From: Candidatus Omnitrophota bacterium | GTDB lineage: Bacteria; Omnitrophota; Gorgyraeia; Gygaellales; Profunditerraquicolaceae | Direction: 5' to 3' | NCBI GenBank assembly: GCA_043812955.1 | Contig: JBDRLN010000018.1 | Coordinates: 13,849 to 77,848, forward strand | DNA: 64,000 nucleotides | Shown: piece after piece, positions 4,470-39,900 of the stretch | Position numbering within the stretch: the first letter of the stretch is position 1 | Layout: every line of letters begins with the position of its first letter | Position numbers and translations under genes: made by a program | The notes under the pieces: model-generated | Told to the model about the DNA's origin: nothing | Databases searched by the model: none | Seen by the model: the letters and a program-made list of their open reading frames with translations, nothing else

Positions 4470-4847
4470 TCATTTATTGATTATTGATTTGCTGTTTACC
4501 GAGGCGTCTTTAAACTCCTCTCCCAGGGCCTCTTTAACCTGGGTAACTTTAACCATCCCTTCTTTCAAATCCTTACTGACCAATCTCTCCTGATCCAATA
4601 GCTTTTTGGTCGCCTCATGGCTGGCTTTTTCATTCTGTAATTCCTTATCCTTGGCCATTAGCTGGAAATCCCGGCCCTTTTTTTCGTCCTGTAATTTCTC
4701 TTCAGCCTCAAGACGGGCATACATCTCCTTATCTTTCATATTCTTCTGCTTTTGAATATTTCCGCAGGATTTAATCGTAGTTATTAAAAATACCAACGTA
4801 AGTAAAACCAATATTGGAAAAAGTTTACCCCGGATATCCTCCTCCAT
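4470..4847 (-). CDS. small membrane-anchored coiled-coil protein (FtsB/DivIC-like topology), hypothetical
   Basis: 125 aa with one N-terminal hydrophobic helix (LFPILVLLTLVFLITTI) followed by a charged K/E-rich helical region. Confidence 0.4.
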   Translation of the reverse strand: MEEDIRGKLFPILVLLTLVFLITTIKSCGNIQKQKNMKDKEMYARLEAEEKLQDEKKGRDFQLMAKDKELQNEKASHEATKKLLDQERLVSKDLKEGMVKVTQVKEALGEEFKDASVNSKSIINK

Positions 4848-8327: not shown

Positions 8328-10100
8328 TTACCTCTTTATAATCTTTCTGAGGTCTTCTTTAGAAGGAACACCCTTGGAACTAAAAACCTCCCTATTATTT
8401 AATAGATAAGTTGGCCCGAACATGACCATTAATTCTTTATTCAGGCTTATATTCTCCCTCAATAAATTTTTTCCCTCATCAGACTGAGCGCAGGCCTTAA
8501 TCTTCGCGGTATCGAATTTACCCAGGCCGCAGTCATCCCACCAGGAAGTAAAGCTATTTTTCGCCCGGCAGCTGATATAGTCCCAGAAATATTCCGGAAA
8601 ATGTTTCTGCACACATACACTACGCAAGGCCTCTTCAACTTCCGCAATACCTTTAGGGGCCTCAAATTTATCTTCTTTCTCCACTGCCAGAAAATGTACT
8701 ATAGGATTAAATTCTTTTAATGAATCGAGTGACGCGAAACTATCCTTATCAAATAAGCTAAAAAATAGATCCAACCTGCCCTTAACAAATTCGCGATTAA
8801 GAAAATACGACATACCTGACATCTGAGGCAAAACCTGATAGAATTCATTTTTTAATTCTAGATTATTTTTCAGGTTCTCGAATTCCTTTTCCTTCTCCAG
8901 CTCTTTACCCAGAAAATAAGCCGGTAGACTTAGGATATCAAACTCCCGGATTAATTTATCCGCTTCCTTACCCGGGTAAGGGACTTCCCTAACTTCTAGC
9001 CCGTTGATCTTCTTCTTAAAGAAATTTACCATCGGGTTAATATCACATACCGCGCAAGACTTAGGGCTAATAACCAAAAACCGCACTTTTTGGGCCGCGG
9101 TAAACAGGCATTGAGATCTGATTTCGCCGGGATTCTGGCAGGTCCCAATCATTTTTTCTTTTTTACAGTTACTCTCGGAAAAACAGCGCGGGAGCACTAA
9201 ACTTATATCATCGTCATCAATTATTTTATCCGACAAACGTAATTCATCTATCCTGTAATCGGAAATTTTTTTATCTTTTATATTTAAAACTGCCTTGCCT
9301 AATCTACGGCCCTGCCAAGCCGGCCTTAATATCAAAGTGGAATTTACCTTAGCAAAGATACTCTCCTTTAAACGGCTATGCCCGATTATGACTACGTCGA
9401 TACCCGGCACATTTTTAATCAGCCTAACATCCTCATCTTCGCCTAACTGGCTTAACAATATAATTATATCAACGGATTTGGATTTAAGCTCATCTACTAC
9501 CTGTTTAACCTTAGTCCCGGGGTCCGCTATATCCAAACCCCCGGTTTTAGGAGCGATTGAAACCGGGGCAACTCCGATTATCCCGATCTTTACGCCAGCC
9601 AGCTCTTTTATCACGTAAGGCAAAACGTTATCTAATTTTAAATTACTGGAGACAAAATTTACTTTAGTTTCTTTTATAGCTTGCTGGAGAAATTCCCGGC
9701 CAAAATTAAACTCATTATCCCCTAAATTCAGGGCGTCGTATTTCATTAACTCCAGGGATTTAAGGTTTACCCGGGTCCGTTTCTTATCTAAATCCGTGTT
9801 CTGGGTATATTCATCCGTTAGTCCGCTGGCAAAAAATCCGCCTGAATCCAAAACTAAGGTATTGGCATTTTTTGCCCTTATTTCCTTTATCCGGCTAGCT
9901 CTCCGGGCTACCCCGCCGTCGGATTCTATCGGGCAGCTGCAGGGATAAAGCATAGAGTGGGTCTCGCCGGTGTAAAGTAGGGTGATTTCCTCGGCAAAAC
10001 AGGGAAACGCAAAATTCAAAACTAAAAACGTAAAACTGAAACTCAAAACTAAAAAAGTTTTTCCCGTCCAGCGCTTAAGCCATAGGGCGGGATCCCGCAT
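8328..10100 (-). CDS. secreted 5'-nucleotidase/metallophosphoesterase fused to a C-terminal DsbA-like thioredoxin-fold domain
   Basis: 5'-nucleotidase family blocks are present (LVLDSGGFF, LGDNEFNFG, VKIGIIGV, DVVIIGHSR). The C-terminal ~300 aa contains a CAVC pair and a DsbA-like GPTYLLNNRE. The ORF track extends to 10223 (MTIK..., an ATGA overlap with the serA stop), but those extra 41 aa are encoded by a copy of repeat family B. A canonical signal peptide, MRDPALWLKRWTGKTFLVLSFSFTFLVLNFAFPCFA, begins at 10100, which I take as the more likely start. Confidence 0.6.
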   Translation of the reverse strand: MRDPALWLKRWTGKTFLVLSFSFTFLVLNFAFPCFAEEITLLYTGETHSMLYPCSCPIESDGGVARRASRIKEIRAKNANTLVLDSGGFFASGLTDEYTQNTDLDKKRTRVNLKSLELMKYDALNLGDNEFNFGREFLQQAIKETKVNFVSSNLKLDNVLPYVIKELAGVKIGIIGVAPVSIAPKTGGLDIADPGTKVKQVVDELKSKSVDIIILLSQLGEDEDVRLIKNVPGIDVVIIGHSRLKESIFAKVNSTLILRPAWQGRRLGKAVLNIKDKKISDYRIDELRLSDKIIDDDDISLVLPRCFSESNCKKEKMIGTCQNPGEIRSQCLFTAAQKVRFLVISPKSCAVCDINPMVNFFKKKINGLEVREVPYPGKEADKLIREFDILSLPAYFLGKELEKEKEFENLKNNLELKNEFYQVLPQMSGMSYFLNREFVKGRLDLFFSLFDKDSFASLDSLKEFNPIVHFLAVEKEDKFEAPKGIAEVEEALRSVCVQKHFPEYFWDYISCRAKNSFTSWWDDCGLGKFDTAKIKACAQSDEGKNLLRENISLNKELMVMFGPTYLLNNREVFSSKGVPSKEDLRKIIKR

Positions 10101-10142
10101 AAAAAATATTAGATTCCCAGCGGGAAAACTTTTAGTTGTAAC

Positions 10143-10212
10143 CTTGCGCTTTTCCTGCCTAACTGCCGGATAGGCAGGCCTGCCGGCAGGCAGGGCGCTT
10201 TGCGCTTTTAAC
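10143..10212. repeat. Repeat family B-like nested palindrome (GCGCTTTTCCTGCCTAACTGCCGGATAGGCAGGCCTGCCGGCAGGCAGGGCGCTTTGCGC)
   Basis: Built from CCTGCC/GGCAGG palindromic units and a GCGCAAAGCG flank, as in the in-frame family B copies inside the giant gene (26877-26965, 31291-31395, 40395-40500). Confidence 0.55.
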
Positions 10213-10219
10213 TTAATGG

Positions 10220-11806
10220 TCATAATTTTATTACCTTTACAGCCAATATATTGTCCAGCTTTTTGATCTTTTCCAAAAGTTCAGGGGATATCGAGCTATC
10301 CACGTTTAATAAACTTACCGCTTCTTGACCCTCGATCTTACGGCCAAAGGTCATTGCCGCGATATTGATATTGTGCTTTCCTAAAAGCGTACCGATACTT
10401 CCGATGATCCCGGGTTTATCCCAATTTTTCATAGTCAACAAGTATCCTGACGGAGAAGCCTCAACATAAAAATCATCGATATTAACAATCCTGGGCTCTC
10501 TCTTCGGAGAAAGTGATGCCGCAAACTTACGGGTTTCTTTATCAGTGATTATCTTAAGCGAGATCAGGTTCACGAAATCCTCTTCCACTAAAGCCTTGGT
10601 CTCTTTGATCTGGATGCCCCTCGCCTTGGCGATTGGGATAGCATTGATAAAATTAACCGTATCTTTTAAAACCGGTTTTAAGAGCCCTTTGACTAATGCC
10701 ATAGTCAGAGAAGTGGTGTTATATTTGGTGATATCGCCGCTATACAAAATACTGATTTCATTGATCCTTCCCTCGATTATCTGGCCGGAAAAATCTCCCA
10801 ATTTCTCAGCCATAATTATATACGGCTGTAATACTTTATAAAGCTCTGAGTCAATATTTGGATAATTTGCCGCATTGCGAATGCCTTTACCGGATAAAAA
10901 ATCCCGCACGCATTCAGCTACTTCAATAGCTACGTTTACCTGGGCCTCTTCGGTTGAAGCCCCTAAATGGCAGCTGACTACCACATTATCCATTTTTAAT
11001 AATTCCGAATTCGGATCCGGCGGTTCTTTTTCAAATACGTCTAAAGCAGCACCCGCGATCTTGCCTTCTTTAAGCGCTTTGATCAAAGCCTGTTCTTCGA
11101 TTATCCCGCCCCTAGCGCAATTAATTACCCGAGCTGTCTTTTTCATTAAATTAAACTCTGCATCTGAAATCAGGTATTTAGTATCTTCGGTTAGAGGGAC
11201 ATGCACAGTAATAAAATCCGCAGTTTTTAATAATTCATTTAATTCTACCGCTTCGATCCCCATATGCTGGGCTGCTTCGCGGGATAAATAAGGATCGTAG
11301 GCCAAAACCTTCATCCCGAAAGAAAGCGCCCGCTTAGCCACTTCTGAACCGATTTTGCCCAGGCCGACTACACCCAGAATTTTCTGGTAAAGCTCGACTC
11401 CCATAAACTTAGAACGTTTCCATTCCCCGGCTTTAGTAGTAGAATTTGCCAAAGGGATACTCCGGGCCAAAGATAAAATAAGGCTCAAGGTCTGCTCGCA
11501 GGTAGAAATAGTATTGCCCGCCGGAGTATTCATTACCACTATGCCTCTCTCAGTTGCTGCCGGCAGATCTACGTTATCCAGGCCCACACCTGCCCTGCCG
11601 ATAACTTTCAGTTTATTGGCCGCGGCAATAATATCCTTGGTCACCTTGGTAGCGCTCCTGATTAAAAGGGCATCGTAATCTCCGACCATAGCCTTTAATT
11701 CTTCTGGCTTCATCCCGGTCTTGATGTCAACCTGAAAATCCTTATTTGACTTTAATATTTTTAAACCTTCTTCGGACAAAGAATCACTGACTAGAATTTT
11801 GAACAT
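10220..11806 (-). CDS. serA: D-3-phosphoglycerate dehydrogenase (with C-terminal ACT domain)
   Basis: 528 aa with the NAD-binding VGLGKIGSEVAKRA motif, the 2-hydroxyacid dehydrogenase catalytic region and a C-terminal ACT-like region. Confidence 0.9.
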   Translation of the reverse strand: MFKILVSDSLSEEGLKILKSNKDFQVDIKTGMKPEELKAMVGDYDALLIRSATKVTKDIIAAANKLKVIGRAGVGLDNVDLPAATERGIVVMNTPAGNTISTCEQTLSLILSLARSIPLANSTTKAGEWKRSKFMGVELYQKILGVVGLGKIGSEVAKRALSFGMKVLAYDPYLSREAAQHMGIEAVELNELLKTADFITVHVPLTEDTKYLISDAEFNLMKKTARVINCARGGIIEEQALIKALKEGKIAGAALDVFEKEPPDPNSELLKMDNVVVSCHLGASTEEAQVNVAIEVAECVRDFLSGKGIRNAANYPNIDSELYKVLQPYIIMAEKLGDFSGQIIEGRINEISILYSGDITKYNTTSLTMALVKGLLKPVLKDTVNFINAIPIAKARGIQIKETKALVEEDFVNLISLKIITDKETRKFAASLSPKREPRIVNIDDFYVEASPSGYLLTMKNWDKPGIIGSIGTLLGKHNINIAAMTFGRKIEGQEAVSLLNVDSSISPELLEKIKKLDNILAVKVIKL

Positions 11807-13091: not shown

Positions 13092-13124
13092 CCACCCCGT
13101 AGGTGTCTTACACCTACGGGGTGG
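13092..13124. repeat. Repeat family C hairpin, perfect 14-bp stem (CCACCCCGTAGGTG tctta CACCTACGGGGTGG)
   Basis: Intergenic between the clpP stop and the aminotransferase start. An identical copy lies at 22698-22730, and diverged in-frame derivatives sit inside the giant gene at 31268-31294 and 61111-61150. Confidence 0.8.
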
Positions 13125-19717: not shown

Positions 19718-20731
19718 TTAATTTAGTTTTTGCAATAACTCTTTTCGGTTAGTTACCGCTGTACCCAATTTCCCCACAACTATTCCGGCGGCATAATTAG
19801 CGATATGCGCTGCCTCAACCTTTCCGGCCCCTGAACAAAGGCTTAAAGTAAAAGCGGCAATAACTGTATCTCCGGCTCCAGATACGTCAAACACCTCCTG
19901 AGATATTGTCGGTATATGAATAGTTTTTTTATTCTTTTCAAATAGTTTCATCCCCTGTTCGCCTAAAGTAACTAAAACCGCGTCAAGGTTTAAGTATTTC
20001 ATTATATGCTCAGCCGCCACATCTACATCCTTCATAGTCGACAGCCGGTAAGTGTCCAGCTTGAACCTATTGGTATTATCCTTGATCTTTAAATTTCTGG
20101 CCGCGTTCTCCAACTCTTTGCGATTAGGGGTAATACAGGTAACTCCCTTATAATACTGAAAATGTTCCTCCTTCGGATCGACATTAATAATCTTTTTATG
20201 CTTTTTAGCTAAGCTGATAACCGTTTCCAAGAGCTCCATATTGATTACGCCTTTGCCGTAATCCTCGATAATAATCGCGTCAAACTTACGGATGTTTTTT
20301 TTAATAAAACCGATGATTCCCTGGTTTAACGCCTTAGGCAATGGCTCAACATCTTCCCAGTCGAGCCTTACTACCTGCTGGTGGCCAGAAACAATCCTGG
20401 TCTTTAAAGTAGTGCATCTTTGCGCAGATACAAAAATACCTGCGGCGGAAATCTTTCTTTTCTTTAATTCTGAAAGCAATATTCCGGTATTCTTATCCTT
20501 ACCGATCACTCCGGCCAAACAGACAAATCCGCCCAGGGAACTAATATTATTAGCTACGTTAGCCGCGCCTCCGGGTAGAAATGTGCGTTTTTTAGCCCAG
20601 ACTACCGGTACCGGCGCCTCCGGCGATATCCTCTCCACATCTCCCCAGATAAATTCATCCAGGATCAAGTCGCCGATTACCAGTATATTCGCTTGGCTAA
20701 ATTTATTTACTATCTGCTTAAAATCCTGCAT
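19718..20731 (-). CDS. hldA: D-glycero-beta-D-manno-heptose-7-phosphate kinase (PfkB-family kinase, HldE domain-I type, stand-alone)
   Basis: 337 aa. The N-terminus ILVIGDLILDEFIWGDVERISPEAPVPVV matches the HldE kinase-domain signature, and the C-terminal GAGDT motif is present. Confidence 0.75.
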   Translation of the reverse strand: MQDFKQIVNKFSQANILVIGDLILDEFIWGDVERISPEAPVPVVWAKKRTFLPGGAANVANNISSLGGFVCLAGVIGKDKNTGILLSELKKRKISAAGIFVSAQRCTTLKTRIVSGHQQVVRLDWEDVEPLPKALNQGIIGFIKKNIRKFDAIIIEDYGKGVINMELLETVISLAKKHKKIINVDPKEEHFQYYKGVTCITPNRKELENAARNLKIKDNTNRFKLDTYRLSTMKDVDVAAEHIMKYLNLDAVLVTLGEQGMKLFEKNKKTIHIPTISQEVFDVSGAGDTVIAAFTLSLCSGAGKVEAAHIANYAAGIVVGKLGTAVTNRKELLQKLN

Positions 20732-20805
20732 ATTCTTTTAGCCCCCAATAAGGTTATAGACAACCTTATTAATTTATCACAATTTCAAATTCAAATCAAC
20801 TCTAT

Positions 20806-22605
20806 TTAGTTTTCGGGTTTACGGAAATCCTGGTTGCAATAGAGTTTATGGTATAGCCCCTGCTTTTCCAGGAGTTCGGCGTGCGTTCCTTCCTCGACTA
20901 TCCTTCCTTCGCTTAAAACAAGTATCCGGTGGGCATGCCTAATAGTAGAAAGACGGTGAGCGATGATAAATACCGTACGTCCTTTGATCAGCTTATTTAT
21001 CGCCTCCTGCACTATACGTTCAGCCTCAGTATCTAACTGCGAGGTTGCCTCATCTAATATTAATATCGGAGGGTCTTTAAGAATCGCCCGGGCAATAGCA
21101 ATCCTCTGCCTTTCTCCTCCGGATAATTTCATCCCCCTGTCTCCGATAAATGTTTCATATCTTAAAGGCAGCCGTTTGATAAAATCATGGGCATGGGATT
21201 GCACTGCAGCTAATTCTATTTCTTCATAATTCGCGTCCGGCCGGCCATAAGTGATATTAGTCCTGATGGTATCATTAAACAGAATAGTCTCCTGAGTAAC
21301 AATCCCTATTTGCTGGCGCAGGGATTTCAGGCTGAAATTCTTCGTCTCCTGTCCATCAATTAAAATCCTCCCGCGTAAAGGATCATAAAAACGCGGGATC
21401 AGATCTACCAGGGTAGTCTTGCCGGAACCGCTAGGCCCCACTATAGCCACGACCTGGCCTTTTTTTACCTCCAGGTTAATGTTCTTTAAAATCTCCTGGT
21501 TTCCATGATTAAACCAGACATCTTCAAACAGGATACTGCCTTTAAAATCCTTCAATTCCTGGGTATTCTTCCTATCTAATACCGTCGGAATGGTATCTAA
21601 GACTTCGTAGATGCGGGCATTGGCTGCCATAGCCTGCTGGATTATGGAATTAACCTGGCTCAATTTTTTAAAAGGCCGAATCAAAGAGAGCAATGCTCCC
21701 ATAAACAAACCAAACATGCCGAAAGAAAGTTTTCCGGCAATTACCTCTTTACCCGCCCATAAAAAAACAAAAATACCGGCAAGGACGCCTAAAATCTCGG
21801 TAAACGGCCCTAATAACAGTGTACGCTTAATAGATTTCATTGAGAGTTTATAATAATACTGGTTGGTCTGGCTGAATTTGGCTACCTCGTAACTCTCCAT
21901 ATTAAATGCCTTGATGATTCTGGCGCCCAATATACTCTCATAAAGTATGGAATTAATATCAGCCATGGCCTCCTGGGTCTTACGGGATAACTTTCTTAAT
22001 ACCCTACCTACCTTAATAATAGGAAAACTGATTAAAGGAAGAAGCACCAGGGCAGTCAGGGCCAGCTTCCAATGGATAAAAAATATTAAACAGGTAAAAA
22101 GAACTACCTGCAGAGTCTGGTAAATCAAGTCCGTAGAACCATAAGAAACAGCATTTTCCACTAACTTTACGTCGTTGGTGATCCGGGAAATCAGCTCGCC
22201 TCCGCGCTTCTGGGTAAAATAATCCATGGATAAGGCGTGAAGCTTGGTATAAAGCTTGGCCCGGATATCCCTAACTACTAACTGGCCTATATCAGACATA
22301 AGATAACTCTGCAAAAAACCGAATATCCCCTTAAATACAAACAGGATTATTGTAGCCACGGCCATATAATTAAGCATGGCCAACGGCTGAATACCGTTAA
22401 TAAAACTGATGAAATTGGAAAGGAAGGCTGGTAATTTGGTCGGAATAATGATTTGCTTATTGGTCAGTACTTTATCCGCCATCGGTACTATCATACCCAA
22501 AGAAACGCCATCAAATATAGCAGAAAAAAACATGCATATGCCTGCTATAATGAAAAGCCCGGGATAGGGTTTGACAAATCGCAGCAATTTCAGGTAATCA
22601 CGCAT
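20806..22605 (-). CDS. msbA: lipid A export ABC transporter (fused permease/ATPase)
   Basis: 599 aa with a six-TM ABC exporter domain, Walker A GPSGSGKTT, signature LSGGERQRIAIARA and Walker B ILILDEATS; the LPS cluster context fits. Confidence 0.82.
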   Translation of the reverse strand: MRDYLKLLRFVKPYPGLFIIAGICMFFSAIFDGVSLGMIVPMADKVLTNKQIIIPTKLPAFLSNFISFINGIQPLAMLNYMAVATIILFVFKGIFGFLQSYLMSDIGQLVVRDIRAKLYTKLHALSMDYFTQKRGGELISRITNDVKLVENAVSYGSTDLIYQTLQVVLFTCLIFFIHWKLALTALVLLPLISFPIIKVGRVLRKLSRKTQEAMADINSILYESILGARIIKAFNMESYEVAKFSQTNQYYYKLSMKSIKRTLLLGPFTEILGVLAGIFVFLWAGKEVIAGKLSFGMFGLFMGALLSLIRPFKKLSQVNSIIQQAMAANARIYEVLDTIPTVLDRKNTQELKDFKGSILFEDVWFNHGNQEILKNINLEVKKGQVVAIVGPSGSGKTTLVDLIPRFYDPLRGRILIDGQETKNFSLKSLRQQIGIVTQETILFNDTIRTNITYGRPDANYEEIELAAVQSHAHDFIKRLPLRYETFIGDRGMKLSGGERQRIAIARAILKDPPILILDEATSQLDTEAERIVQEAINKLIKGRTVFIIAHRLSTIRHAHRILVLSEGRIVEEGTHAELLEKQGLYHKLYCNQDFRKPEN

Positions 22606-22697
22606 CAGTTTCTCCTAAGATATATTGCTTTTTTTAGAGAAATATATATTAACACAATAGTTTATTTTTGTCGAGTGTTCTATTTTTAACCCTTCGT

Positions 22698-22730
22698 CCA
22701 CCCCGTAGGTGTCTTACACCTACGGGGTGG
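22698..22730. repeat. Repeat family C hairpin, second perfect copy (CCACCCCGTAGGTG tctta CACCTACGGGGTGG)
   Basis: Identical 33-mer to 13092-13124, sitting in the divergent msbA / comFB-cheR intergenic region. Confidence 0.8.
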
Positions 22731-22787
22731 AGCTGGTTCATAAATATTCTTTTAAATAGTACATATTTATGCTATAATTTTATCCCT

Positions 22788-23888
22788 ATGGCCCAAAGCA
22801 AATTAAGAAACATTACTGAAGAGATGATCCGGGAGCGCTTAAATAAAGCCCTGGCTATCCATTATGATATCTGCAGCTGCATAACCTGCGAAACCGATAT
22901 GCTTGCCTATATCCTTTCCCGGGTCCCGGCCAATTACTCAACCACTGAAAAAGGCGCAATCCATACCCTGGCTGAAAAAAACAACCAAGAAGAAGAAAGT
23001 TTAATTAACCACCTGATCTTTTCCGCCATAGATATCGTAAGTAAGAAACCTACGCATGAATTAAAGGAAGACCATCAGGCACTACTTAAATTAATGCTCA
23101 AGAAGATATTCCATGAAAGAGGCGTAGATTTCCGCAATTACCACCAGGAGATCTTAAAAAGAAGGCTGGCACTGAGGATCCGCGCCAACGGCTTAAAATC
23201 ATATTCCGAATATATGAACTTCCTCTTCAGCAATCCCAAAGAATACGATAAGCTATTTGAAACATTATGCATAAATGTTTCCGAATTTTTCCGGGATAGC
23301 AGTATCTGGATAACCGTAAAAGCCCTTTTGGAAAACCTGGTCCGCTTAAAAAATAAAAACAACGAAAAGAGTATAAAAATCTGGTCAGCCGGATGCGCCT
23401 GCGGAGAAGAGCCTTATACCATTGCCATCATTTTAAAAGAGCTGTTAAATGACGATCTGAATAAATTCGACTTAGATATCTACGGCACGGACATTGATAA
23501 AGAAGCCCTGGAGGCCGCAGAGGAGACGGTATATCCAAAAGCAAGCGTTAAAAATTTAACCCCTCGGATCGCCGAAAAATACTTCCTGGCTATCGGCGGG
23601 AATTATAAATTAAGGAGTCAAATAAGGGATATGGTTAAATTATGCTATCTGGACCTGACTTCTTTTGATCTCATTGAAAATGTTGATGTGATATTTTGCC
23701 GGAATGTTTTTATTTATTTTAATCTTCGTCTTCAAAAAGAACTGGTCACTAAATTCCACAGGTCCCTGAAATCCGGCGGCTATATAGTTATGGGAAAGGT
23801 CGAAACTATTTTAAGAGATTCCGAAGAATTGTTTCAAGAGGTAGATGCCGGGGCTAATATTTTCCAAAAAAAAATAACCAGTAAATGA
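22788..23888 (+). CDS. ComFB-like N-terminal domain fused to a CheR-type SAM-dependent methyltransferase
   Basis: The ORF track starts at 22668, but its N-terminal stretch overlaps the family C hairpin. The ATG at 22788 gives MAQSKL.... The N-terminus HYDICSCITCETDMLAYILSRVPANY resembles the ComFB cysteine motif. The C-terminal ~270 aa is CheR-like (KIWSAGCACGEEPYTIAI, VIFCRNVFIYF). A TATAAT box lies 11 nt before the ATG, so the transcript may be leaderless. Confidence 0.7.
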   Translation: MAQSKLRNITEEMIRERLNKALAIHYDICSCITCETDMLAYILSRVPANYSTTEKGAIHTLAEKNNQEEESLINHLIFSAIDIVSKKPTHELKEDHQALLKLMLKKIFHERGVDFRNYHQEILKRRLALRIRANGLKSYSEYMNFLFSNPKEYDKLFETLCINVSEFFRDSSIWITVKALLENLVRLKNKNNEKSIKIWSAGCACGEEPYTIAIILKELLNDDLNKFDLDIYGTDIDKEALEAAEETVYPKASVKNLTPRIAEKYFLAIGGNYKLRSQIRDMVKLCYLDLTSFDLIENVDVIFCRNVFIYFNLRLQKELVTKFHRSLKSGGYIVMGKVETILRDSEELFQEVDAGANIFQKKITSK

Positions 23889-23889
23889 T

Positions 23890-24165
23890 CTAAAGCGGGA
23901 TCGTGCTTACTTTATTGAATTTAACTCCAATTTCCCTTCCTTTAACCCAAACTATTTCTCCGCAGACATAAAAATGCCCTAATCCAGGCAGGATCTGAAA
24001 TTGGCCAAATATAGAACTACCCGGCTGCAATCCAGCATCTAAAACCACCTTCATCCCACCGGCGGAGATATTTAAAACTATACATTTTTCTACCTTACCG
24101 TCGCCTTTATGGTAAAACGCGCCGTCTTTTTTATCTACCCGGTTAAATTTACGCTTCTCTTTCAT
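23890..24165 (-). CDS. PilZ-domain protein (c-di-GMP receptor-like)
   Basis: 91 aa with RKFNRV (RxxxR) and LNISAGGMKV (D/NxSxxG) motifs. Confidence 0.7.
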   Translation of the reverse strand: MKEKRKFNRVDKKDGAFYHKGDGKVEKCIVLNISAGGMKVVLDAGLQPGSSIFGQFQILPGLGHFYVCGEIVWVKGREIGVKFNKVSTIPL

Positions 24166-24176
24166 TTCCCCTTCCC

Positions 24177-24887
24177 TTAACCTTTGAAATTCCTGGCCAG
24201 GCTCATTAGATCCGCCCGCTCCAGGTTAATTCCGCAGCGAAAACCAGAGGCGCCGGATCCTTCTGACCAGACTACCTCACCCCGGGTATAAAGAGGCTCT
24301 AGTCTATCCGGAATATTCAGCCACATCTCTAACGAAGTATTGGGTAATAATTTTTCTTGAGTAACCAAACCCATCCCCTTGGAACTTATATCTACTGATT
24401 TAGCCAGGCCTTCCCGGTCAGCGCTGGACTCAAGAAACCTAAGAGGCAGCTCCATAGGAAAACGCGCGAATATTCTTTTATCCTCAAAATTCTGGCTCTG
24501 CAGCATAACCTCTTCTCCTGTTTTAAGGCCTTCCCACCAACGCTTGTTTACCTCTTGGGGTGCGGATTTAAAAACGTATTTAAAAAGCTTATCTTTATCG
24601 CTATCCTTGATCTTGATAAAATAAAACCCGTAGTAGTTCCTGCTGTCTATAACCCTATGCCAGACCACCCAGGTTTCTATATCCAGGGTAAAATCATCGG
24701 CCAGCAAAATATTTAAATTCAGAAATTGGTCCTTTTCAATAACCTTAGGCCCCAGAGACAGTTGCAATCCTTTGAAATTAACATCGATCAGACGGCCATC
24801 GACAAAATCACCCTCACCTGCCAATTTTATTTTTATTGGGCGGCTGATCAGCCATCTGGTAATCTTGCGCTGCTCTTTAGTATCCAA
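24177..24887 (-). CDS. tandem PilZ-domain protein
   Basis: 236 aa with two RxxxR ... DxSxxG-type units (RKITRW...DVNFKGLQL; KRIFARF...VDISSKGMGL). It apparently starts with TTG, preceded by an AGGAG. It lies 71 nt downstream of the giant-gene stop on the same strand. Confidence 0.65.
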   Translation of the reverse strand: MDTKEQRKITRWLISRPIKIKLAGEGDFVDGRLIDVNFKGLQLSLGPKVIEKDQFLNLNILLADDFTLDIETWVVWHRVIDSRNYYGFYFIKIKDSDKDKLFKYVFKSAPQEVNKRWWEGLKTGEEVMLQSQNFEDKRIFARFPMELPLRFLESSADREGLAKSVDISSKGMGLVTQEKLLPNTSLEMWLNIPDRLEPLYTRGEVVWSEGSGASGFRCGINLERADLMSLARNFKG

Positions 24888-24957
24888 GGGCTTACTCCTA
24901 TTATATTAAAAATTTCTTATAATGCAACCAATTTATTGCTATAATTTAGCGCCATAG

Positions 24958-27900
24958 CTACGGCCTAATAGCAATAAATCTCATCCCTCCATAATAAAAA
25001 GTATTATACATATCATTAATCGCCTCGATTACCCCTATTTCTTTGAGGCTTTCTACATCAATCGGTTTAATATCAAGCCGGGGGTTAACACTTTTTAACT
25101 GTTCAAAATCAAACCTGCGGCCTTCATTTTTAACCAAAGCCAAAGCTATTGTTTTATATAAAATCCGGAAATTATTACTAATGGGTATCTTATTATAATT
25201 ATTTCTGCTAATTACCTTTGTTTTAAGCGATAATTCCTCCATAGCCAAATGATTAATTCCGTCGACATAACTCTTATCAACCATATCAGCCATCATAATA
25301 TCGTTTTCCGCCTCCTCAAATAACAGATTGAGTTGTGCCGCGTCTTCCTGGCTGAGGGCTTTACCTAAAATCCATCTTAATTCTACTTTAAACAATAATT
25401 CTTCAACCGATAACAAGGCCAGACTAGCTTTAAGATGAAACCCCCGGGCAAAATACCTGCTGGCATAAGAATCACTCTGCATTATCTCGGCAGTATATTC
25501 CGGAGTAAGCGCTAAGTTTATTTTTTCCTTAGCCTCGGAATATTTACCCTGTCGATTTAAGGCATCGGCTAAAATTATATGGCTTAAAACCAGCCAATCC
25601 TGTCTTTTATGATTCACCAACCATCTCTTAAACTTTAATAGTTCTTTTGCGTTATTTTCTATCTCCTGATTTAAATATACGCCTCCTACGTAGAACTTAT
25701 TTTTAGTCGACATTTTATCCAGATATTGGATTTTTTCAAAAATATACCTGGTCCGATTATCAGCGCCCTTAGACAAGCGGACTGCTTCATCAAAATCCGC
25801 TAGACACTCTTTAAGATTGCTTTTATCAAAATTAAGTATGGCCCGGATATAATAAGCTACCGGAGAAAAAAAATTCGGCGTATTGATAATCTCTTCGAGT
25901 TTATCAAAAGCCTCTTTAGTAAATCCTCTTTTTTTCTCGGCCAGTTTAAGATAAAAATCTTTCATTTTTATATCCTGCGGGTCATATTTAAATAGCTCGC
26001 CCAATAATCCTAATGCCAACGGATAATTCTTCGGTTCTCCTGATATAAGTTTTGAATTAATGATCCGGTATAATTTTTCCTTGTGCTTGTCAACAACCGG
26101 CGACGACGAGGGACACCCTTTCAGCCAATCGAGGGACACCCTTTCAGACAATCGGGATGATGTCCCCTGCTGTTTTACATCCAATACCATAGCCACCAAC
26201 GCTCCCATTCCTTGCCACGCTGGCAAACCTAATCGGGACACGCTGTCCGAGCCAAAGCGGACACTGTGTCCTAGAGCGGCCGGCGAGCTAGAACAAATAT
26301 TAGCTACTTCTGCAAGAAACCTTAATGTTTTTCTAAACATAATCTTGCCCACTCTATCCTTGCACCAAAGCGCCTTGCCAATATCCAAAGCCAAGGGATT
26401 ACAATCAAGCTTCCTTCTCTTTACATTAGAAAACCAGTCCTTCTGTAATTTGGCATAGTCAGACCCGGTAAATTCAATTTTCCCCATGAGCTTGACATTA
26501 ATAGTATTTAAGTCAAACTGTTCATCTTTGCTATTAAATACGTGGCCGTGGCGCCACATAGTTTCATCAAAGTATGTCCTGATAAACAAAATAACAGGCA
26601 AGTGTTTAAGGTCTTCTTCTGCGGCATCAAATTTATTTTTAATTTTCTTCATGCCTAATAGGAAAACCTCAAGTATCATCTCCTCTAAGAACTTCTTAAT
26701 ATTATTTTCTTCTATTCTGTTGCTTATAATATAAACATTGCCGTAAAATTGCTTAGAGTCGCTTTCCATTATTGAATTAAATAATGACTGCGGCATGCCG
26801 TGAATACCTATATCAGGCAATCTTTCAATTAATTTTTTTACCTGGATTTGATCTTGCCGTAGATTATTTTTAACAGCCGGCGAGCTTCCAACGCAAAGCG
26901 TATCGCCTGCCTGCCGATCAGGCAGTAATCCGTCACTTCTTCTGGCGGAAGACTGCGCCACCGGCAAGGCGGCCGGCGAGCTGGAGCGAAACGTACCCCG
27001 CGACGAGGTAGTTCCGTTTAATCCCGTATTATTTAAAGCCGCAAAGGGAAAGGTATATTCTTCTTCTATTTTCACCTCAAAATCCGCCAACCTCTCCTGC
27101 GCTTCTATAACGCATCCTATCCTGGAATTACTCTCATCCAGATCAACCATCTCTCCGACTAAAATTATCCTTTTCACTCCCAGTTCAAACTTTAATATCC
27201 ATCGTAACCTATCCCAATTTGTAGATAAGCCAACCGGGCAAGCCATCCCTTCCAATTCCACGGGCTCCAAATCATCTAAATAAGTATTAATTAAAATCCC
27301 GTATAAATTATATTTTCTAAATAATTTACCTGCCTCTGTCAATAAATCCATCTTTGGCTTTAACCTGATTGTACTTTTAATATAACGCTGGTCTCCTATC
27401 CCGGCGAATATGGGCCCAGGATAAGACCGGACACGATCGGATAACCTATGAATAAAACTCCGATAACCTCTAACGGCATTCCCTCTTATTGCTTTCCGCA
27501 GTATCAAGGGGACTCTCTTAAAATTCCTGCTGATATAATCATCTAACACATTTTCAAAAAATAACGGGTGGCTCCATAATATAATCTCGTGATTATTCCG
27601 CGAAATACTCCGCCGTAATTCCTCTGAGGCTAAAACTGTGGATATCGGGATAAGCCTTTGACCATTGCCTGCAGGCGGACTGGAAGGTTTAGGCCCTAAC
27701 CTATTGACGCTCCGATCAGCTACAAATTTGGAGGCAAACCCCAATAAAACCCTACCTAACCTAAGGAATTTAACCGGCGAGCTTCCTTTCGGCACTGGCG
27801 AGGCGGAGGTTTTTTGGACTAAGGGAACAGCTGTGCCTGCAGATTTACCCAGCTGATAAATATATCTAAAAGCCTCATCTGGATTGTCACAAGAACTTAA

Positions 27901-30900: not shown

Positions 30901-33900
30901 CATTTTCTCGCTAGCCATATTTTCTAATGCCTGCGGGCTTTGAACTGTGATGCCTAAACCGAATCCATTAAACATCTCGGCATTAATCCCAAACGTCCTA
31001 GCGGCAAAATAGGAAACAAAATAATCATTGCCGATCGAATTATATAGGACATTGCCTCCTAAGACCCCCATTTTTTTCAGGAGATGTAATATTGTAATAT
31101 AGTGTATAAGGGCGTTATCTAATCTTAACTTGTCATACTTAATATAGTCTCTAGTCCTTAACCATGTTAACGTTTGCCGGTCTAAATGAATTTGGTCAAG
31201 TATCCTTTCTATGTCGTTTTCGAAGAATAAACGGTAGAAATATTCCTCATCTAAAGGCGAGCTGGACCCATTTCCACCCCGTAGGTGGAAATGGTTTGCG
31301 GCTGGCGAGCTTCCGACACAAAGCCTGGCGCTTGCCTGCCGGTCAGACAGGGATCCGCCACGTATTGTGGCGCGGGGCTGAAGCACTGGTTCCTCAAACC
31401 AATTCACTATCAATCTACGGGTTCCCGGGATCATCTCGCCACCATTGATGAGAGGGCTCGATGTCGAGGCGGAACGCTTATCCATTAACATTACCTCCGG
31501 GAAACCTTCACTCAGGAATTTTGCCAAAGTTTCAACTGCGAGCTCCGCATCTTCGCCTTCTGCAATAAGCTTTACCTGGGCTGCGCTTATCCATGAATCA
31601 ACGATAGCATCCGCAACCGCTGCCAGCGAATCCAGTATTTTTTTAAGATTTACGGTTTCATTTTTATGTTCTATATAGATACGGGATAAAAATTTATTAG
31701 CTAGCGCCACTAAATTGCTGATATCATGTTCGTGTACTTCTTCGCAATTATCAACTATACATATTTTTTCTATCCTTTTCAGAGTATTTTCTTCAGGTGA
31801 AGATTTTACCGGCGAGCTGGATATAACAAAACTGCTACTATTTACTTCTGCCATTTTCACTTTATCTAATTTATAATAAGTTGTATATACGGGATCAGGA
31901 ATATTAGAAACAATTCTAAAGGGATCTGATTTTTGAAAAATTAATGGGATGCCTAATCCGGCATTATAATTTACTATTTTCAAACCTTGATGTGGTATAA
32001 ATTTAAAATCTCTTCCCCAAACCTTTATACTCCGCAAAATTGTTTTAGGTTTTATGCAAACTAAATTTGCAAATCCTACTCCTTCCGGTTTCAGCCTCCT
32101 TTTAAGAACATTGTAAACTTCCACTCTATCTTTGAAATATTGGCCAACATTATACCCAACCACAAAGATATCAAATAGGCCGGCCCCCAGAAATAATTGG
32201 CCCTCGTTCAAATCCCGCAAAATAAAATTATTCCTAAGGTGTTGAGAGTATCTTTCCGCCCTATCTAGGTCTATTTTCACTCCTAACCTTTGCATAAATC
32301 GGCCGGCTATACTATTTGCGTCTATTTCAACGAGATCATGCTTCGCTAAGGAGTAAAAACTTATCCCCTCTATATTTATTCTTTCTTTTACTTCCAGCAA
32401 AAACATTAATTCAAAAAGTTCATAACCCCTGCCCGGGCCGACCCATAAAATACTGATTTCGGGATTTCTTTTCATACTTTTTTTAATTCTGCTTAAAATT
32501 GACTTATAGAGATGTCCGTCGAATGCTTGGTTAATCTCCCTGAAAAAGTGGCTAATATAACCTTCAGGATAGTTAATCATCGGCGAGGCGGCGGTATTGT
32601 TCCTTATGGCCGAATTGCGACCGGAATGAATCGTTTGATTGATGGATTCATTTTTTGACTCAATGCCAGACAATGGGCTAGATACAGCGTCTACATCTTC
32701 TTTTTTGCTTAAATTTGAAGATATCGATGAAGTAAAGATAAGCCTGTCCACCCAGAAAAAAATCGCCGCGCCGATTAAATTAGCTATGACCGTCGCAAAT
32801 AAGCTGACGCCTAACCACCAGACAACCAACCACAAAACAGGGGTACTCAACTGCCAACGGATAAGATAAAGAATAAACCTTTTTATTGATAGCCCGCTGT
32901 TCGTTTTTTCTGCCGGATTGCTGGATTCTTTCTCTACAGGCGAGGCGGCGGCATATATGTTATTGATTATAAAACTGGCTGAATAAACGGCAGGGTTTAA
33001 AAACGCAGCTTTAAAAATTAGCAGCGGCTTTGGACCTGCCCTGATAGGACAGCTATCCATCAGCGGACTTGAACCGGAGTTTTCCGTAGAATTATCGGTT
33101 AATGTAATAGCCTGGGCCAAGCTCTTGCCTTCCCAAAGTAACCTGGCTACAAAATATTTGGAAGGTACATCGTATGGAAAATAATAATCCAGCGCTCCAT
33201 ACAGCATCTTTCCGTATTTATAAGTCCAAACCGGTTCTCTTGATAGGTTATCCCATAAACTCACCCTGCTCGCATCCAGTAAATATTTCTGCAATATCCC
33301 TACCGGGACAGCGCTGGCGATCAATTCACCTTCTGAGATATATTTACCTTCGGTTTCGGAAGATTTAATCATCTGAGATAATAACCTTTTTTCTTCTAAG
33401 CGTATAAGATTTATTAAATTCGGCAATCCTTCCCGATGAGCCTTTCTCAATTTTCCTGGCCATAACGCGTGAATAAATTCATGGGCAACAGTTAGTTCGG
33501 AATTTAACTCTACTAAATCTTTTGACCAAAGTTTTCTCCGTTTAACCAATATAGTCCAATTGCCAAGCACGGACTTATAAGCTGTCCCTAAACCCGGACA
33601 ATAACCTCTACCTCGACAAAAATCATGTAGCCGATATTTTACATGCATATAAAAATACAAAATAATCGTAGAAATAGCGATGCTGATTAGGATAGAACTA
33701 AATTCGTTGTCCGGGATTAACCCAAAAGGCTTAATTATAAATTCAGCATATGCCCAGAAAACCGTAAAAGCAGGCAACCCCAACAATAAAAACCCGGCTA
33801 AAAAAATAACCGACTCGCCGATAAAACCTACCATGTTTAACCATGAAGTACGCGGCGTATACGGTCTAACCGTAATTGCCGAAATAAATTTTTTAATTTC

Positions 33901-36900: not shown

Positions 36901-39900
36901 GTAGCCCACTCCTTTTTCCAACCTCTCTTCTTTAATACCGAAATGCCGGAATAAACCCGGCTGCTGCAGATAAACATAATATTCATTTACTGAACGCTCT
37001 AAAGCTCTTCTTAACATACAATAAATAAGAAAAGAGCCCAATCCTTCATTCCAATAATCTTCTTTTATCTTTAAATAACTTTCTCGCTCGTGCCCCATTT
37101 TGAGCTCATTTATAAGAATATAAAATAAGATATTTCCTACTCGCGATTCTTTAAAATCAGGCACGTCAACTTTTAGAATTAAATAATGAAATTGTTCACC
37201 TTGGCTTAAATTGATAAAGGTGCGCTTTTCTCTTACTATAAACATCCCTTTCCTGTTTTTTATGCCTCCAATTAGCCTGCCGTCTATCGCCTTAAGCGTG
37301 ATCTGCCTTAGCGCATACTCAAGGCCGTTTCTTTCAACGCCTGAATTGCCCGCCGGCGAGCTGGAAATTGTATTAAATTCTTGGGGACTAAATAGAATCT
37401 TTACGTCCGCGCCCCGATACAAACAGATCCCTTCTCTCCTTCTTATCGTCCGTCTGTTTAACTCTAAACCATACTGTTTCTTATAAATATCTTCCGCTAA
37501 ATCAGCAACTAAATAAGGGTTCCCGGGAAGGAAGTAGTAATCTGGGCCGAATTCTACTAAGATATCGATCATATCTATAAACAGCCTATTTAAACCCGCG
37601 CTATTTACGGCTTTTCTCAAAATAAAAAACTGGGCATAGGCATATTTATGAAAACCTGCGTCATAGATTGTGTTTGAACTTATAAACTTAAACGCTGATT
37701 TAAAAATACAATATGTGAATTCATTTCTTTGCTCCTGTCTAATCTTTAGTTGATTTAGTAGGACAGCCGCTGTAAATTCTGCAACAAATTCCTGTAATCC
37801 GGCAAAGGCTCTATATTTTGAATCAACGGAAAGCGGATTAGAATTATCCTTTAATTTTACAATAAACGATTGATTAGGGAAAAGAGCGTAAAGCCAATTA
37901 TGGCCTATTTCATGCGCGATTATTCTTAGGATTCCTTCAATACCATGGCTCAAATAATAGCCCTTAAGCCTGGCATAGTCATATTTAAAATTCGCGTTGG
38001 CTGTTCCACGATAAGAACCTATATCTAAATTCTGTATAATCTTTTGCGTAATACGCCTAACTATCGCGGGCGTAAATAAGGTATCTAATGACAATAACTG
38101 TACCGAAAGCGCAATATTCCACCCCAATAACTCTTCTTGAATCATTTTTAGCGTATTGTATTTAAAATACCGGTCTATCTTTTCTCGATACTCCATAGAT
38201 ACAAGTTTCTCGTTCAAATCACTCCTTACCAGATCGATTGAACGCCGTAGCAAAAAATTGATCCGCGAATTAATTAATAGGATTAGTTGATGGGTTCCAA
38301 CTGGCCATTTACCAGTTGCCGGCGAGCTGGCCTGCGGCGCCAGCGGCGAAGAAACAAATTCAAATTCTGATGGGTTTCTTTGGACCTTGATTCTTACACC
38401 AAGATGATCCGAGGCCAAGAAGATTCCTCCTTCATTTTTTATAACTTTTAATCCCTCAAATAGTTTCTTTAAACGTTCCTGATTCACTTCATCTGTTTTA
38501 AATAAAGAACGATACTGGGATATATACTCGTTAAAGGTGGGTTTAATGGTAACCGTATCAACAAAATCTCCATTCTCTGCCCAACGAAACACCCTAAAAA
38601 CAAGATTATAAATATACCAAAGAAACATTATCTCTGGATTTATCGCTGCTAACTCATCATCTATGACTTTATAACTACTCTTAAGCCTCCCATCGGGAAA
38701 TTTTATTATCATTTTATTAACATACCCTACAAATTTGCTTACCCTCCATTCAGACACCGGCGGGCTTGAGTCGAGAACCTCATTTTTTTCTATTTCTACA
38801 AATATTTCCGGGTATAGTTTCTTTAACCATGGCGTAATTTGTACGTCATTTTCTTTATAGATCACCTTAAATCTCTCTCCCAATTCTTCCGTAAATGGCA
38901 ATTGCATGCGGCCATCCGCCAAAGAATGGCCCCTAAGTATGAGCTTAAGCGCTGCGTCAGTAAGTTTAAGGCTAACTTTCGGATTTTCATTTTTATAATA
39001 TAGACTTAAAAGATACCAAACTTCACCGATATATATCGGAATATTTAAAGATTCATGATAAGACATATCTGGCTCTCTTTTTATTACCTCATCCGCGCAA
39101 TAGTTAAACATATCCACAATTAAATCTTCCGGCAGCTGACATAGTATAACGAAAAGTTCTTTATGTACGCTTTCACTTTCTAAAAATAGATAATATATAT
39201 TACTAGGATCAATATAATAATAAGCTTTCATGACTTCCCTTACCCACCTTGCCGTACTTTCATAGTCACCCCCTATCTTAAGATTGCGTAGTTTATCCTC
39301 TATTTCTTGAATAGATATTCCTTTGGGTGGAAAAAGATACCGTCCCTCCTTTAAAACGCTCATATCAGGCGTTCCCCATTTCCATTCCCGCTGCCGCCAA
39401 TAGGGATGCATATTAGTCTCAACCGGCGAGGCGGCGGTTTCACTCCTGACCCTGCTTTCATCCGCCGGCGAGCTGGCATAAAGCGTAGATGCCGGTATTA
39501 TTTTTCCGTCTACGGTTGCATCATTACCGCTAACCAATAAAGCAGAATAATCTCTCCGCAGAGAACCAGTAATGGCTCTGTGAAGATGTGCCGGCAAAGG
39601 CACCTCTTCACCCTGTTCTATCAAAACATTCGTAAAAAATATGGCTTCTGCTCTGTGTTGCGTTAACATGCCACTCTGCGCCGGATCTAAGAGATCGATA
39701 TATTTCGGCTCTACCAACGCGCGGATGTTGTTTTTCAAACGACAATAACGCGTGTCGTCCTTTACGATTTCGAAAAAGATATCAAAGTTTTCTTGTGTTA
39801 TACACTCGCAGACATAGGCAAGCTTATAAATACCCATTTTTACCGCGTATAAAAGCGGTATATTTTTATCCCAAGCCTCTATTCCTATGCTCCATGGTAA

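Follow-up and report, generated by a model that had tools for sequence, protein, structure and literature searches.

A candidate junction of two cyclic di-GMP-responsive modules, a ComFB-CheR fusion and two PilZ genes, next to a giant gene in Omnitrophota

A 64-kb stretch of DNA from a Candidatus Omnitrophota bacterium (hereafter the window, numbered from its first letter) contains a 2.1-kb segment in which a gene for a fusion of a ComFB domain with the methyltransferase CheR (22788-23888, plus strand, 366 amino acids (aa)) meets two PilZ genes on the minus strand. One of these encodes a single-domain PilZ protein of 91 aa, here called PilZ91 (23890-24165), and the other a tandem-PilZ protein of 236 aa with a TTG start (24177-24887); a giant open reading frame (ORF) ends just upstream of the pair on the same strand. 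It is proposed, with confidence evenly divided, that the segment is the junction of two modules that respond to cyclic di-GMP (c-di-GMP), and that c-di-GMP gates CheR via PilZ91 and/or the ComFB domain in a manner resembling the MapZ-CheR1 pair of Pseudomonas aeruginosa. The first module would be the tandem-PilZ protein, encoded just 3' of giant genes, which would most likely report c-di-GMP to the giant protein or to export or uptake machinery encoded nearby. The second would be the convergent pair of PilZ91 and ComFB-CheR, both of which would derive from che clusters. Since ComFB has been published as a receptor domain for c-di-GMP and cyclic di-AMP (c-di-AMP), the 2.1 kb encode four predicted cyclic-dinucleotide receptor domains. 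The proposal is built on domain identities, the conservation of motifs and catalytic residues, a predicted fold, operon geometry and recurrent gene neighbourhoods. An earlier reading of this DNA made from the letters alone (the sequence-only reading) had named the ComFB-CheR fusion, the two PilZ genes, their spacing from the giant gene and a CheR-like module inside the giant protein, and all of these are present at or near the positions it gave.

The sequence-only reading had also advised a domain search of the 22788-23888 product, and this search returned Pfam ComFB, CheR_N and CheR. The ComFB domain occupies aa 7-88 (PF10719, E = 1e-14, 54.7 bits against a cutoff of 25) and corresponds to 22806-23051 on the plus strand, as placed by alignments to 4WAI and 8HJA. 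It is followed by CheR_N at aa 101-150 (PF03705, E = 6.7e-12, 45 bits) and the CheR catalytic domain at aa 163-353 (PF01739, E = 1.6e-51, 175 bits), which together cover 23088-23846 on the plus strand. The predicted architecture is thus that of a domain of the cyclic-dinucleotide receptor type, an all-α CheR_N domain and an S-adenosylmethionine (SAM)-dependent glutamate O-methyltransferase domain. All homologues use the ATG at 22788 as their start and not the upstream TTG at 22668. An exact look-up of the protein gave no record; the homologue search returned an NCBI protein of 'Candidatus Omnitrophota bacterium' with 100% identity. Sequence matches in the PDB comprise 5FTW (1.8e-32), 1AF7 (3.8e-27) and the ComFB structure 4WAI (1e-05), and an AlphaFold 2 model with a mean predicted local distance difference test score (pLDDT) of 88.6 superimposes onto B. 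subtilis CheR (5FTW) with a template modelling (TM) score of 0.90 and a root-mean-square deviation of 2.3 Å. The NCBIfam CheR equivalog model scores 129 bits against a cutoff of 435, and the protein is therefore classed as a member of the CheR family and not as an equivalog. Residue conservation was counted over 120 orthologues. R169 and Y310, which we take to be the counterparts of the catalytic R98 and Y235 of Salmonella CheR, are found in 120/120 and 117/120 sequences, and D235, presumably the acidic SAM-binding residue, is found in all 120.

The N-terminal part of the fusion had been described from the letters as a ComFB-like Cys domain. ComFB is instead a characterised receptor family for c-di-GMP and c-di-AMP (PMC12448109). 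The residues C29, C31, C34 and H90 are invariant in the 120 orthologues, so that the domain probably holds a Cys3-His zinc site whose fourth ligand is His90 rather than a cysteine. The dimer residues N8 (119/120), E11 (117/120) and Y50 (119/120) are conserved as well. For the ligand site the c-di-GMP contacts Asp33, Asn40, Arg/Lys41 and Tyr55 of B. subtilis ComFB were compared: D37 (104/120), R45 and Y50 coincide with positions of the B. subtilis protein that serve in ligand contact or dimerisation, and position 45 is Arg, Lys or His across the orthologues. What makes nucleotide binding by this ComFB subfamily uncertain, though plausible, is the ligand Asn, which has become Ser in 117/120 orthologues, together with the stacking Tyr, for which most of them have His.

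The fusion belongs to a family that spans the phylum, as judged by the presence of the three-domain ComFB, CheR_N and CheR architecture in all of the best 120 homologue clusters. Comparison loci are labelled L001 to L100, and the percent identities of ComFB-CheR orthologues refer to the protein of the window. In L001 (85% identity) and L003 (80%), which together with the window form one clade, the order msbA, ComFB-CheR, PilZ91, tandem-PilZ and giant gene is retained. Outside this clade ComFB-CheR is divergent from an operon for a pseudopilin, PilM, PilO and a secretin in 9/9 independent orthologous loci (L004, L007, L008, L086, L087, whose sequence is identical to L006, L088, L096, L097 and L098; about 49-54% identity), and only L087 has a giant gene. 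What lies downstream of ComFB-CheR is more varied. A second ComFB-CheR paralogue and an epimerase follow in L004, L007, L008, L086 and L088, a CheC-like and then a REC-GGDEF-like gene in L097, a REC-GGDEF-like and then a PilZ91-type gene in L098, and no relevant partner in L096. Among the nine, the arrangement of the window recurs only in L087, where two PilZ genes convergent with ComFB-CheR come next, and after them three small membrane ORFs and a gene for 19,924 aa.

Several features of these loci are worth recording in their own right. The three ORFs of L087 (10052-11565, equivalent to L006 12052-13592), situated between its PilZ pair and its 19,924-aa gene, encode very hydrophobic proteins of 184, 129 and 123 aa without a Pfam match, two of the three being paralogous. 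In four loci the pseudopilin operon begins with a gene for a protein of about 210 aa in which an N-terminal MerR-type helix-turn-helix precedes the prepilin cleavage/methylation motif GFTLIEL and a pseudopilin body (L086 7223-7855, L088 7231-7872, L004 9125-9778 and L096 7221-7862); a DNA-binding domain fused to a pilin-like protein is unusual. A conserved protein of the REC plus GGDEF family is encoded next to ComFB-CheR or PilZ91-type genes in L098 (3772-4713), L097 (9728-10678), L089 (1093-2046) and L090 (4231-5181). The proteins of the pseudopilin operon were considered as methyl-acceptors. The MCP-like methylation pattern [ASTG]2-xx-[EQ]2-xx-[ASTG]2 had one match in a protein with a coiled coil and one in a protein of 545 aa, which was too weak, and the idea was dropped.

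PilZ91 (Pfam PilZ, PF07238, 5.8e-15, 55.9 bits) carries the motifs RKFNR and NISAGG, which correspond to the canonical RxxxR and [D/N]xSxxG at the usual spacing, and the family alignment adds a family-specific C-terminal motif, KVST(I/V/L)P(L/I). A metagenome scan with this alignment yielded at least seven loci, a small but informative sample. Relatives of PilZ91 lie directly after CheW or CheC (L040, L089, L090, L091) or after a REC-GGDEF-like gene (L098). The complete che operon of L091 runs MCP (methyl-accepting chemotaxis protein), CheW, GNAT, CheC, CheA, stand-alone ComFB, CheR, CheY, CheD, CheB, CheC and a PilZ91-type gene. In L040, from an Omnitrophota metagenome-assembled genome, the order is ComFB, CheR, CheY, CheD, CheB, CheC, MCP, CheW and a PilZ91-type gene, and in L089 and L090 CheW is followed by a PilZ91-type gene that is convergent with a REC-GGDEF-like gene. 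ComFB and CheR are further found as separate genes inside che clusters (L021, L050), as a ComFB-CheR gene followed by CheY and CheA (L018), and as CheC-like, ComFB and ComFB-CheR genes in a row (L010, L012, L020). No giant gene is present on the DNA retrieved at the PilZ91-type loci L040, L089, L090, L091 and L098 (2-14 kb per locus). ComFB, CheR and the PilZ91 family occur together in the che clusters of L091 and L040 and can thus be regarded, on gene neighbourhood, as members of one chemosensory neighbourhood, of which the ComFB-CheR fusion represents the Rosetta-stone version of an adjacency found elsewhere. PDB searches with PilZ91 and with the tandem-PilZ protein gave only marginal matches to Xanthomonas and Pseudomonas PilZ proteins (E about 0.03), which are leads and not evidence.

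The tandem-PilZ protein (Pfam PilZ 4.6e-22, in two stretches) has an N-terminal domain with RKITR and DVNFKG, in which Asn replaces the Ser of the motif, and a C-terminal domain with RIFAR and DISSKG. Other family members have Ser or Asn at the N-terminal position. All 27 members of a family alignment share DxRxFxR and SxKG, at least 90% of them have the motif Asp (D165), and the TTG start is conserved in L001 and L003. The family comprises 115 clusters of about 230-250 aa with 36-89% identity, and all members with a named source are from Omnitrophota. In L100 (50% identity) a 39,783-aa gene is followed by tandem-PilZ and then by genes for a solute-binding protein, permeases and a glycoside hydrolase of family 2 (GH2). 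In L099 (44% identity) tandem-PilZ comes after an enolase-fusion gene and a TIM-GAPDH-PGK fusion gene and is again followed by a solute-binding protein, permeases and GH2, and in L087 a single-domain relative lies downstream of the 19,924-aa gene. Neither a PilZ91-type gene nor ComFB-CheR is found at L099 or L100. A small pilZ gene thus stands directly 3' of a giant gene on the same strand in the window, L001, L003 and L100, with related arrangements in L087 and L099. The hint in the sequence-only reading that c-di-GMP signalling is coupled to the giant protein is thus supported in part, at the level of gene order: this family of predicted receptors again lies 3' of a giant (L100) or multi-enzyme (L099) gene, and judging by neighbourhood it is only the tandem-PilZ family, of the two, that tracks giant genes.

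Two further observations concern these loci. The DNA between the 39,783-aa gene and tandem-PilZ in L100 (9272-9726) holds a HicA toxin gene and a small partner on the opposite strand. The fusion genes of L099 (1-8549) encode an enolase-repeat protein, called at 1,181 aa and running over the end of the locus, and a TIM-GAPDH-PGK fusion of 2,069 aa; these very large glycolytic fusion genes may represent a relative of the giant genes in small or fragmented form.

The giant ORF of the window extends from its stop codon (24958-24960) to 63999 on the minus strand, giving a C-terminal part of at least 13,013 codons. It has no in-frame stop before the end of the window, so the protein is truncated there and exceeds 13,013 aa; the homologous gene of L001 was called at 46,785 aa. 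Its Pfam modules include several SAM methyltransferases, a Pol-β nucleotidyltransferase, a Glu/Leu dehydrogenase, B12-binding and radical SAM domains, a CheR-like module and PTS-HPr, and the gene is a mosaic multi-enzyme of the 'Archaeovorin' type. No GGDEF domain was detected in the 13,013 aa within the window at E ≤ 0.001. The giant proteins were compared over the regions 24958-63999 of the window, L001 12160-21087, L003 12171-21089 and L087 11582-17086. Within the last 2,976 aa of the L001 protein only two stretches are shared with the window, namely the final 423 aa (75% identity) and 346 aa around the CheR-like module (79% identity), the latter at a different distance from the C-terminus, and the sampled C-terminal 1,835 aa of the L087 protein have no BLAST similarity to the giant of the window. 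The gene is accordingly strongly mosaic. A paralogue of the C-terminal domain lies further inside the protein, at aa 4991-5382 (33-35% identity), and a homology search with the conserved C-terminal 423 aa gave no match at E ≤ 0.001. An AlphaFold 2 model of this domain from a two-sequence alignment (pLDDT 68) was all-helical with sub-threshold TPR matches and was not used.

The CheR-fold module that the sequence-only reading had placed inside the giant protein is recovered by Pfam CheR with 45.7 bits against a cutoff of 27 (E = 6.5e-12; about 39619-40077, minus strand). The positions 39945-40010 that had been named for it are the SAM loop of this module, 'TIKSLGCSRGDQPYSILMALYG', and the module carries the SLGCSRGDQPYS loop. 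The match covers profile positions 9-147 of 195 and is not accompanied by CheR_N. In an alignment to CheR1 (5XLY) the module reads IFFTNVLIEQ where CheR has IFCRNV(F/L)IYF, and the change of IYF to IEQ removes the catalytic Tyr; the neighbouring Arg is missing too. The protein has at least six SAM-methyltransferase modules, of which this one is best described as a CheR-like SAM-binding fold and not a canonical CheR. The idea that it is a recent copy of the neighbouring CheR was ruled out by an identity of 34% over only 53 aa. As a separate observation, the stretch at about 39250-42250 of the giant ORF, which spans the CheR-like module together with the methyltransferase module that precedes it in the protein chain, reaches a GC content of 0.47 against about 0.39 elsewhere and a GC skew near 0 against about -0.15, and it may be a recently acquired cassette.

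In the proposed mechanism c-di-GMP made elsewhere in the genome would bind PilZ91 and possibly also the ComFB domain, and nucleotide binding would gate glutamate O-methylation by CheR, in trans through PilZ91, as MapZ acts on CheR1, and in cis through the fused ComFB domain. In the orthologous group to which the window belongs ComFB and CheR are fused, and the fused gene normally forms the divergent head of a pseudopilin operon resembling those for type IV pili or type II secretion. The outcome of the switch would then be to set the adaptation state of a chemosensory-type pathway controlling a pilus or secretion apparatus. We infer the ligand binding, the contact between PilZ and CheR, the methyl-acceptor and any link to the deployment of the giant protein.

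The closest precedent is MapZ of P. aeruginosa, a single-domain PilZ adaptor whose c-di-GMP-bound form binds CheR1 and inhibits MCP methylation (PMC6370697; PDB 5XLY, 5Y4R). The window resembles this system in that it links the gene for a single-domain PilZ protein, whose c-di-GMP motifs are intact, to that for a CheR which keeps its catalytic residues, and the CheR1 structures (5XLY) are among the best sequence and fold matches of ComFB-CheR. Unlike in P. aeruginosa, PilZ91 has no detectable similarity to MapZ, the CheR bears a fused ComFB domain, and no MCP gene is nearby. The second precedent is the ComFB/CdgR family, represented by B. subtilis ComFB (4WAI), Synechocystis Slr1970 (8HJA) and Nostoc CdgR (PMC12448109, PMC10068817), whose members, according to the first of these papers, are receptors for both c-di-GMP and c-di-AMP with effects on motility and on the functions of pili. 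The domain in the window keeps CxCxxC, the Asp and the Arg/Lys and, for dimerisation, Asn, Glu and Tyr, and like other ComFB genes the Omnitrophota orthologues adjoin type IV pilus-like genes. It differs in being fused to an enzyme, in the probable use of His90 as fourth zinc ligand and in the exchange of the ligand Asn for Ser and of the stacking Tyr for His.

Homologues of CheR also act in the chemosensory control of type IV pili, for example PilK in the Pil-Chp system and FrzF in Myxococcus. The tie between a CheR-family gene and a pilus-type operon in all nine loci outside the clade of the window is reminiscent of these systems. The difference is that no CheA, CheW or MCP gene lies beside the pilus operon in those nine loci, and that the pilus operon is absent from the window. 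For the tandem-PilZ protein the nearest analogue is YcgR, a PilZN plus PilZ protein that acts as a c-di-GMP-dependent flagellar brake. Both have two barrels, about 235 aa and a canonical C-terminal PilZ domain, and some members of the tandem-PilZ family have been named 'YcgR' by the Joint Genome Institute. In contrast to YcgR, both halves score as Pfam PilZ with no match to the YcgR N-terminal-domain family at E ≤ 0.01, and the genomic context is one of giant genes and sugar transporters and not of flagella. The occurrence of pilZ downstream of Omnitrophota giant ('Archaeovorin') genes has been described (West-Roberts et al. 2023, bioRxiv 10.1101/2023.11.21.568195, section 11, Fig. 7C). As in that preprint, a giant mosaic gene is followed immediately by small pilZ genes, and the published continuation, with genes for a solute-binding protein, permeases and a glycoside hydrolase, is seen in L099 and L100. 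The clade of the window departs from the loci described there in that its pilZ genes are followed by the convergent ComFB-CheR gene and a lipopolysaccharide (LPS) cluster and not by a sugar transporter.

A number of observations weigh against a c-di-GMP-gated CheR. The analogy between PilZ91 and MapZ comes from gene neighbourhood only, and a PDB sequence search with PilZ91 at E ≤ 1 returned no chain of MapZ (PA4608). No gene for an MCP, CheA, CheW, CheB or a GGDEF/EAL protein was found in the 64-kb window or within 10 kb in L001 or L003. In the clade of the window msbA replaces the pseudopilin operon beside ComFB-CheR, and the convergent PilZ91/ComFB-CheR pair is seen in two lineages only, the window clade and L087, possibly shared by descent. 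Within the ComFB domain the key ligand Asn (B. subtilis Asn40) is Ser44, with Ser in 117/120 orthologues, and the stacking Tyr is His59, with His in 79/120. Finally, the REC-GGDEF-like proteins that were inspected (L098, L097) carry GGDDF or GADDF instead of GG(D/E)EF and match only the first 90 or so of 161 Pfam model positions.

The substitutions in the ComFB domain lead to the alternative that ComFB serves here as a structural zinc-binding dimerisation domain without nucleotide binding, and that CheR is regulated in trans only or not at all. The invariant zinc residues C29, C31, C34 and H90, the conserved N8, E11 and Y50, and the two exchanges just named (117/120 and 79/120) all fit this explanation, as does the loss of nucleotide binding in the B. 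subtilis N40A mutant reported in the ComFB paper (PMC12448109). The same paper describes the ligand contacts as flexible across the family, Asp37 and Arg/Lys45 are retained, and the recurrent GGDEF-type and PilZ neighbours suggest a c-di-GMP context, so that a purely structural role is doubtful, with perhaps a minor share of the probability. Another possibility is that both PilZ genes serve the giant protein in its export, processing or activity, perhaps via c-di-GMP from GGDEF modules of the giant itself, with ComFB-CheR as a bystander. The two genes are 11 nt apart on the strand of the giant gene and begin 70 nt past its stop without a terminator; the order giant, PilZ, PilZ recurs in L087 beside a giant with a dissimilar sampled C-terminus; and most giant genes are described by West-Roberts et al. 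as being followed by pilZ homologues. This explanation is nonetheless unlikely, given that PilZ91-family genes lie in che clusters or by REC-GGDEF-like genes with no giant gene on the 2-14 kb retrieved, that a PilZ91-type gene is lacking at L099 and L100, where tandem-PilZ is present, and that no GGDEF domain was detected at E ≤ 0.001 in the 13,013 aa of the giant within the window.

It may also be that there is no functional coupling at all and that the three genes are neighbours by descent which act in separate pathways. The full arrangement is confined to the window clade (80-85% identity) and L087, and the divergent neighbour has been exchanged in that clade, msbA for the pseudopilin operon. 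PilZ genes are numerous in many bacteria and some chance adjacency is expected, which favours this view. ComFB/CheR is found repeatedly with PilZ, GGDEF-type and che genes, in several different orders and orientations, as is typical of functional linkage rather than inherited synteny, and coupling is therefore quite unlikely to be absent. The sequence-only reading had further hinted that methylation signalling is coupled to the giant protein, and in its strongest form this would make the neighbouring CheR and the internal CheR-like module one methylation system acting on or with that protein. Two CheR-family Pfam matches do occur at one locus, and the internal module is one of the two stretches conserved (79%) with the available C-terminal 2,976 aa of the L001 giant. 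The evidence does not support this hint: ComFB-CheR orthologues usually lack a giant neighbour (one has it in the nine independent loci), and the internal module is divergent, without CheR_N, with the catalytic Tyr and the neighbouring Arg lost, with 34% identity over 53 aa to the other CheR-type domain, and as one among six or more SAM-methyltransferase modules. A single methylation system is thus highly improbable.

The c-di-GMP-gated CheR proposed above could be extended to a more speculative picture, in which ComFB-CheR and PilZ91 are a chemosensory remnant in genome-reduced Omnitrophota and form an MCP-independent, c-di-GMP-gated methylation switch on a pseudopilus or secretion machine or on the giant, linking prey contact to the deployment of the giant protein; this is improbable. 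As a weaker corollary of the Rosetta-stone type, CheR and chemoreceptor adaptation may be the target by which stand-alone ComFB inhibits motility elsewhere. In the case of B. subtilis it is at odds with the conclusion of Hahn et al. that ComFB does not act through chemotaxis, and the PNAS paper on ComFB left the effect on chemotaxis open. The authors of both ComFB papers regard the target for motility inhibition as still to be found.

Both the ComFB-CheR fusion and the position of pilZ after giant genes have already been published: the Omnitrophota ComFB-CheR architecture is listed as UniProt A0A1G1PT98 in the ComFB paper (PMC12448109), and pilZ genes at this position are described in the West-Roberts section cited above. 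The accessible text of West-Roberts et al. does not mention ComFB and contains 'CheR' once in a context that is not visible there, so that a mention of a CheR link is possible. The split into giant-linked and che-linked PilZ families was not found in the available text of the ComFB paper, of West-Roberts et al. or of a 2026 Omnitrophota preprint, nor was the constant pseudopilin-operon neighbour of ComFB-CheR. The co-occurrence of ComFB, CheR and PilZ in che operons was likewise not found in the available text of these papers, and the neighbourhood section of the ComFB paper (PMC12448109) is silent on it. The present analysis refines the published pattern in which pilZ follows giant genes, in that the second PilZ gene belongs to a separate chemosensory module. 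As ComFB is fused to CheR or adjacent to it in che operons that have a dedicated PilZ gene, the locus suggests chemoreceptor methylation as an entry point of c-di-GMP into chemosensory signalling in Omnitrophota. The basic picture is unchanged since every component belongs to an already described family, and the locus and its relatives offer a testable lead on the ComFB target and on the regulation of Omnitrophota giant proteins.

The transcriptional layout of the segment can be described in some detail. The sequence-only reading had called ComFB-CheR divergent, which is correct with respect to msbA; relative to the PilZ genes it is convergent. A single base, 23889, separates the stop codons of PilZ91 and ComFB-CheR, so that their transcripts must overlap or end within each other's coding region. 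Terminator-like sites near the convergent gene ends show no excess (4 against 3.0 expected in shuffled sequence). The gap of 11 nt between PilZ91 and tandem-PilZ makes the two probably one operon. The giant gene had been placed 71 nt from the PilZ pair; adjacency and common strand are as described and the distance is 70 nt (24888-24957). This spacer contains no terminator-like hairpin, which makes co-transcription of the PilZ genes with the giant gene possible. Such co-transcription is not required in view of a promoter-like element in the spacer (TTGCAT-N16-TATAAT, 24900-24927, minus strand), read from the sequence and conserved in three genomes, and of the opposite-strand HicAB genes that intervene in L100. 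The element is followed by AGGAG (24895-24899) and the TTG start of tandem-PilZ, and the spacer with short coding flanks has a mean column identity of 89% in an alignment of the window, L001 and L003. With only 3/6 matches in its -35 hexamer, the element was missed by the automatic scan. Upstream of ComFB-CheR a consensus scan found the promoter-like site TTTAAA-16-TG-n-TATAAT (22751-22778, plus strand), with a -10 element conserved in L001 and L003. This element stops 9 nt 5' of the ATG, there is no Shine-Dalgarno sequence, and the geometry is kept in both relatives, which suggests that the mRNA is leaderless or nearly so. No Rfam family, and no riboswitch of c-di-GMP or other type, was matched in 20000-26000 at E ≤ 1.

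The remainder of the window provides context. The divergent neighbour of ComFB-CheR is an MsbA-like ABC exporter (20806-22605, minus strand; TIGR02203, 542 bits, under its cutoff of 602 bits) that heads a cluster for 3-deoxy-D-manno-octulosonic acid (Kdo) and LPS and lies outside the signalling module. Positions 1-20800 contain only housekeeping and LPS genes in a layout that matches the annotated L001, and a search for MCP and GGDEF/EAL genes, proposed in the sequence-only reading, found none among the genes of this part, nor any Che gene. Two ORFs of the housekeeping region are without a Pfam family at E ≤ 1e-4, one of 631 aa (8328-10223, minus strand) and one of 125 aa (4470-4847, minus strand).

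A perfect 33-nt palindrome, CCACCCCGTAGGTGT-CTT-ACACCTACGGGGTGG, occurs identically at 22698-22730, between msbA and ComFB-CheR, and at 13092-13124, between genes for an aminotransferase and ClpP, both sites being intergenic. An RNA fold of the 111-nt stretch that holds the palindrome has an energy of -39 kcal/mol (z = -7.2). Half-sites are found at 31274-31288, 61118-61132 and 61136-61150, these being one-mismatch half-sites within the giant ORF, and half-sites with one mismatch number 7 against 0.39 expected. The corresponding msbA/ComFB-CheR intergenic position is occupied by other inverted repeats in L001 and L003, and the palindrome looks like an element of the repetitive extragenic palindrome (REP) or miniature inverted-repeat transposable element (MITE) kind.

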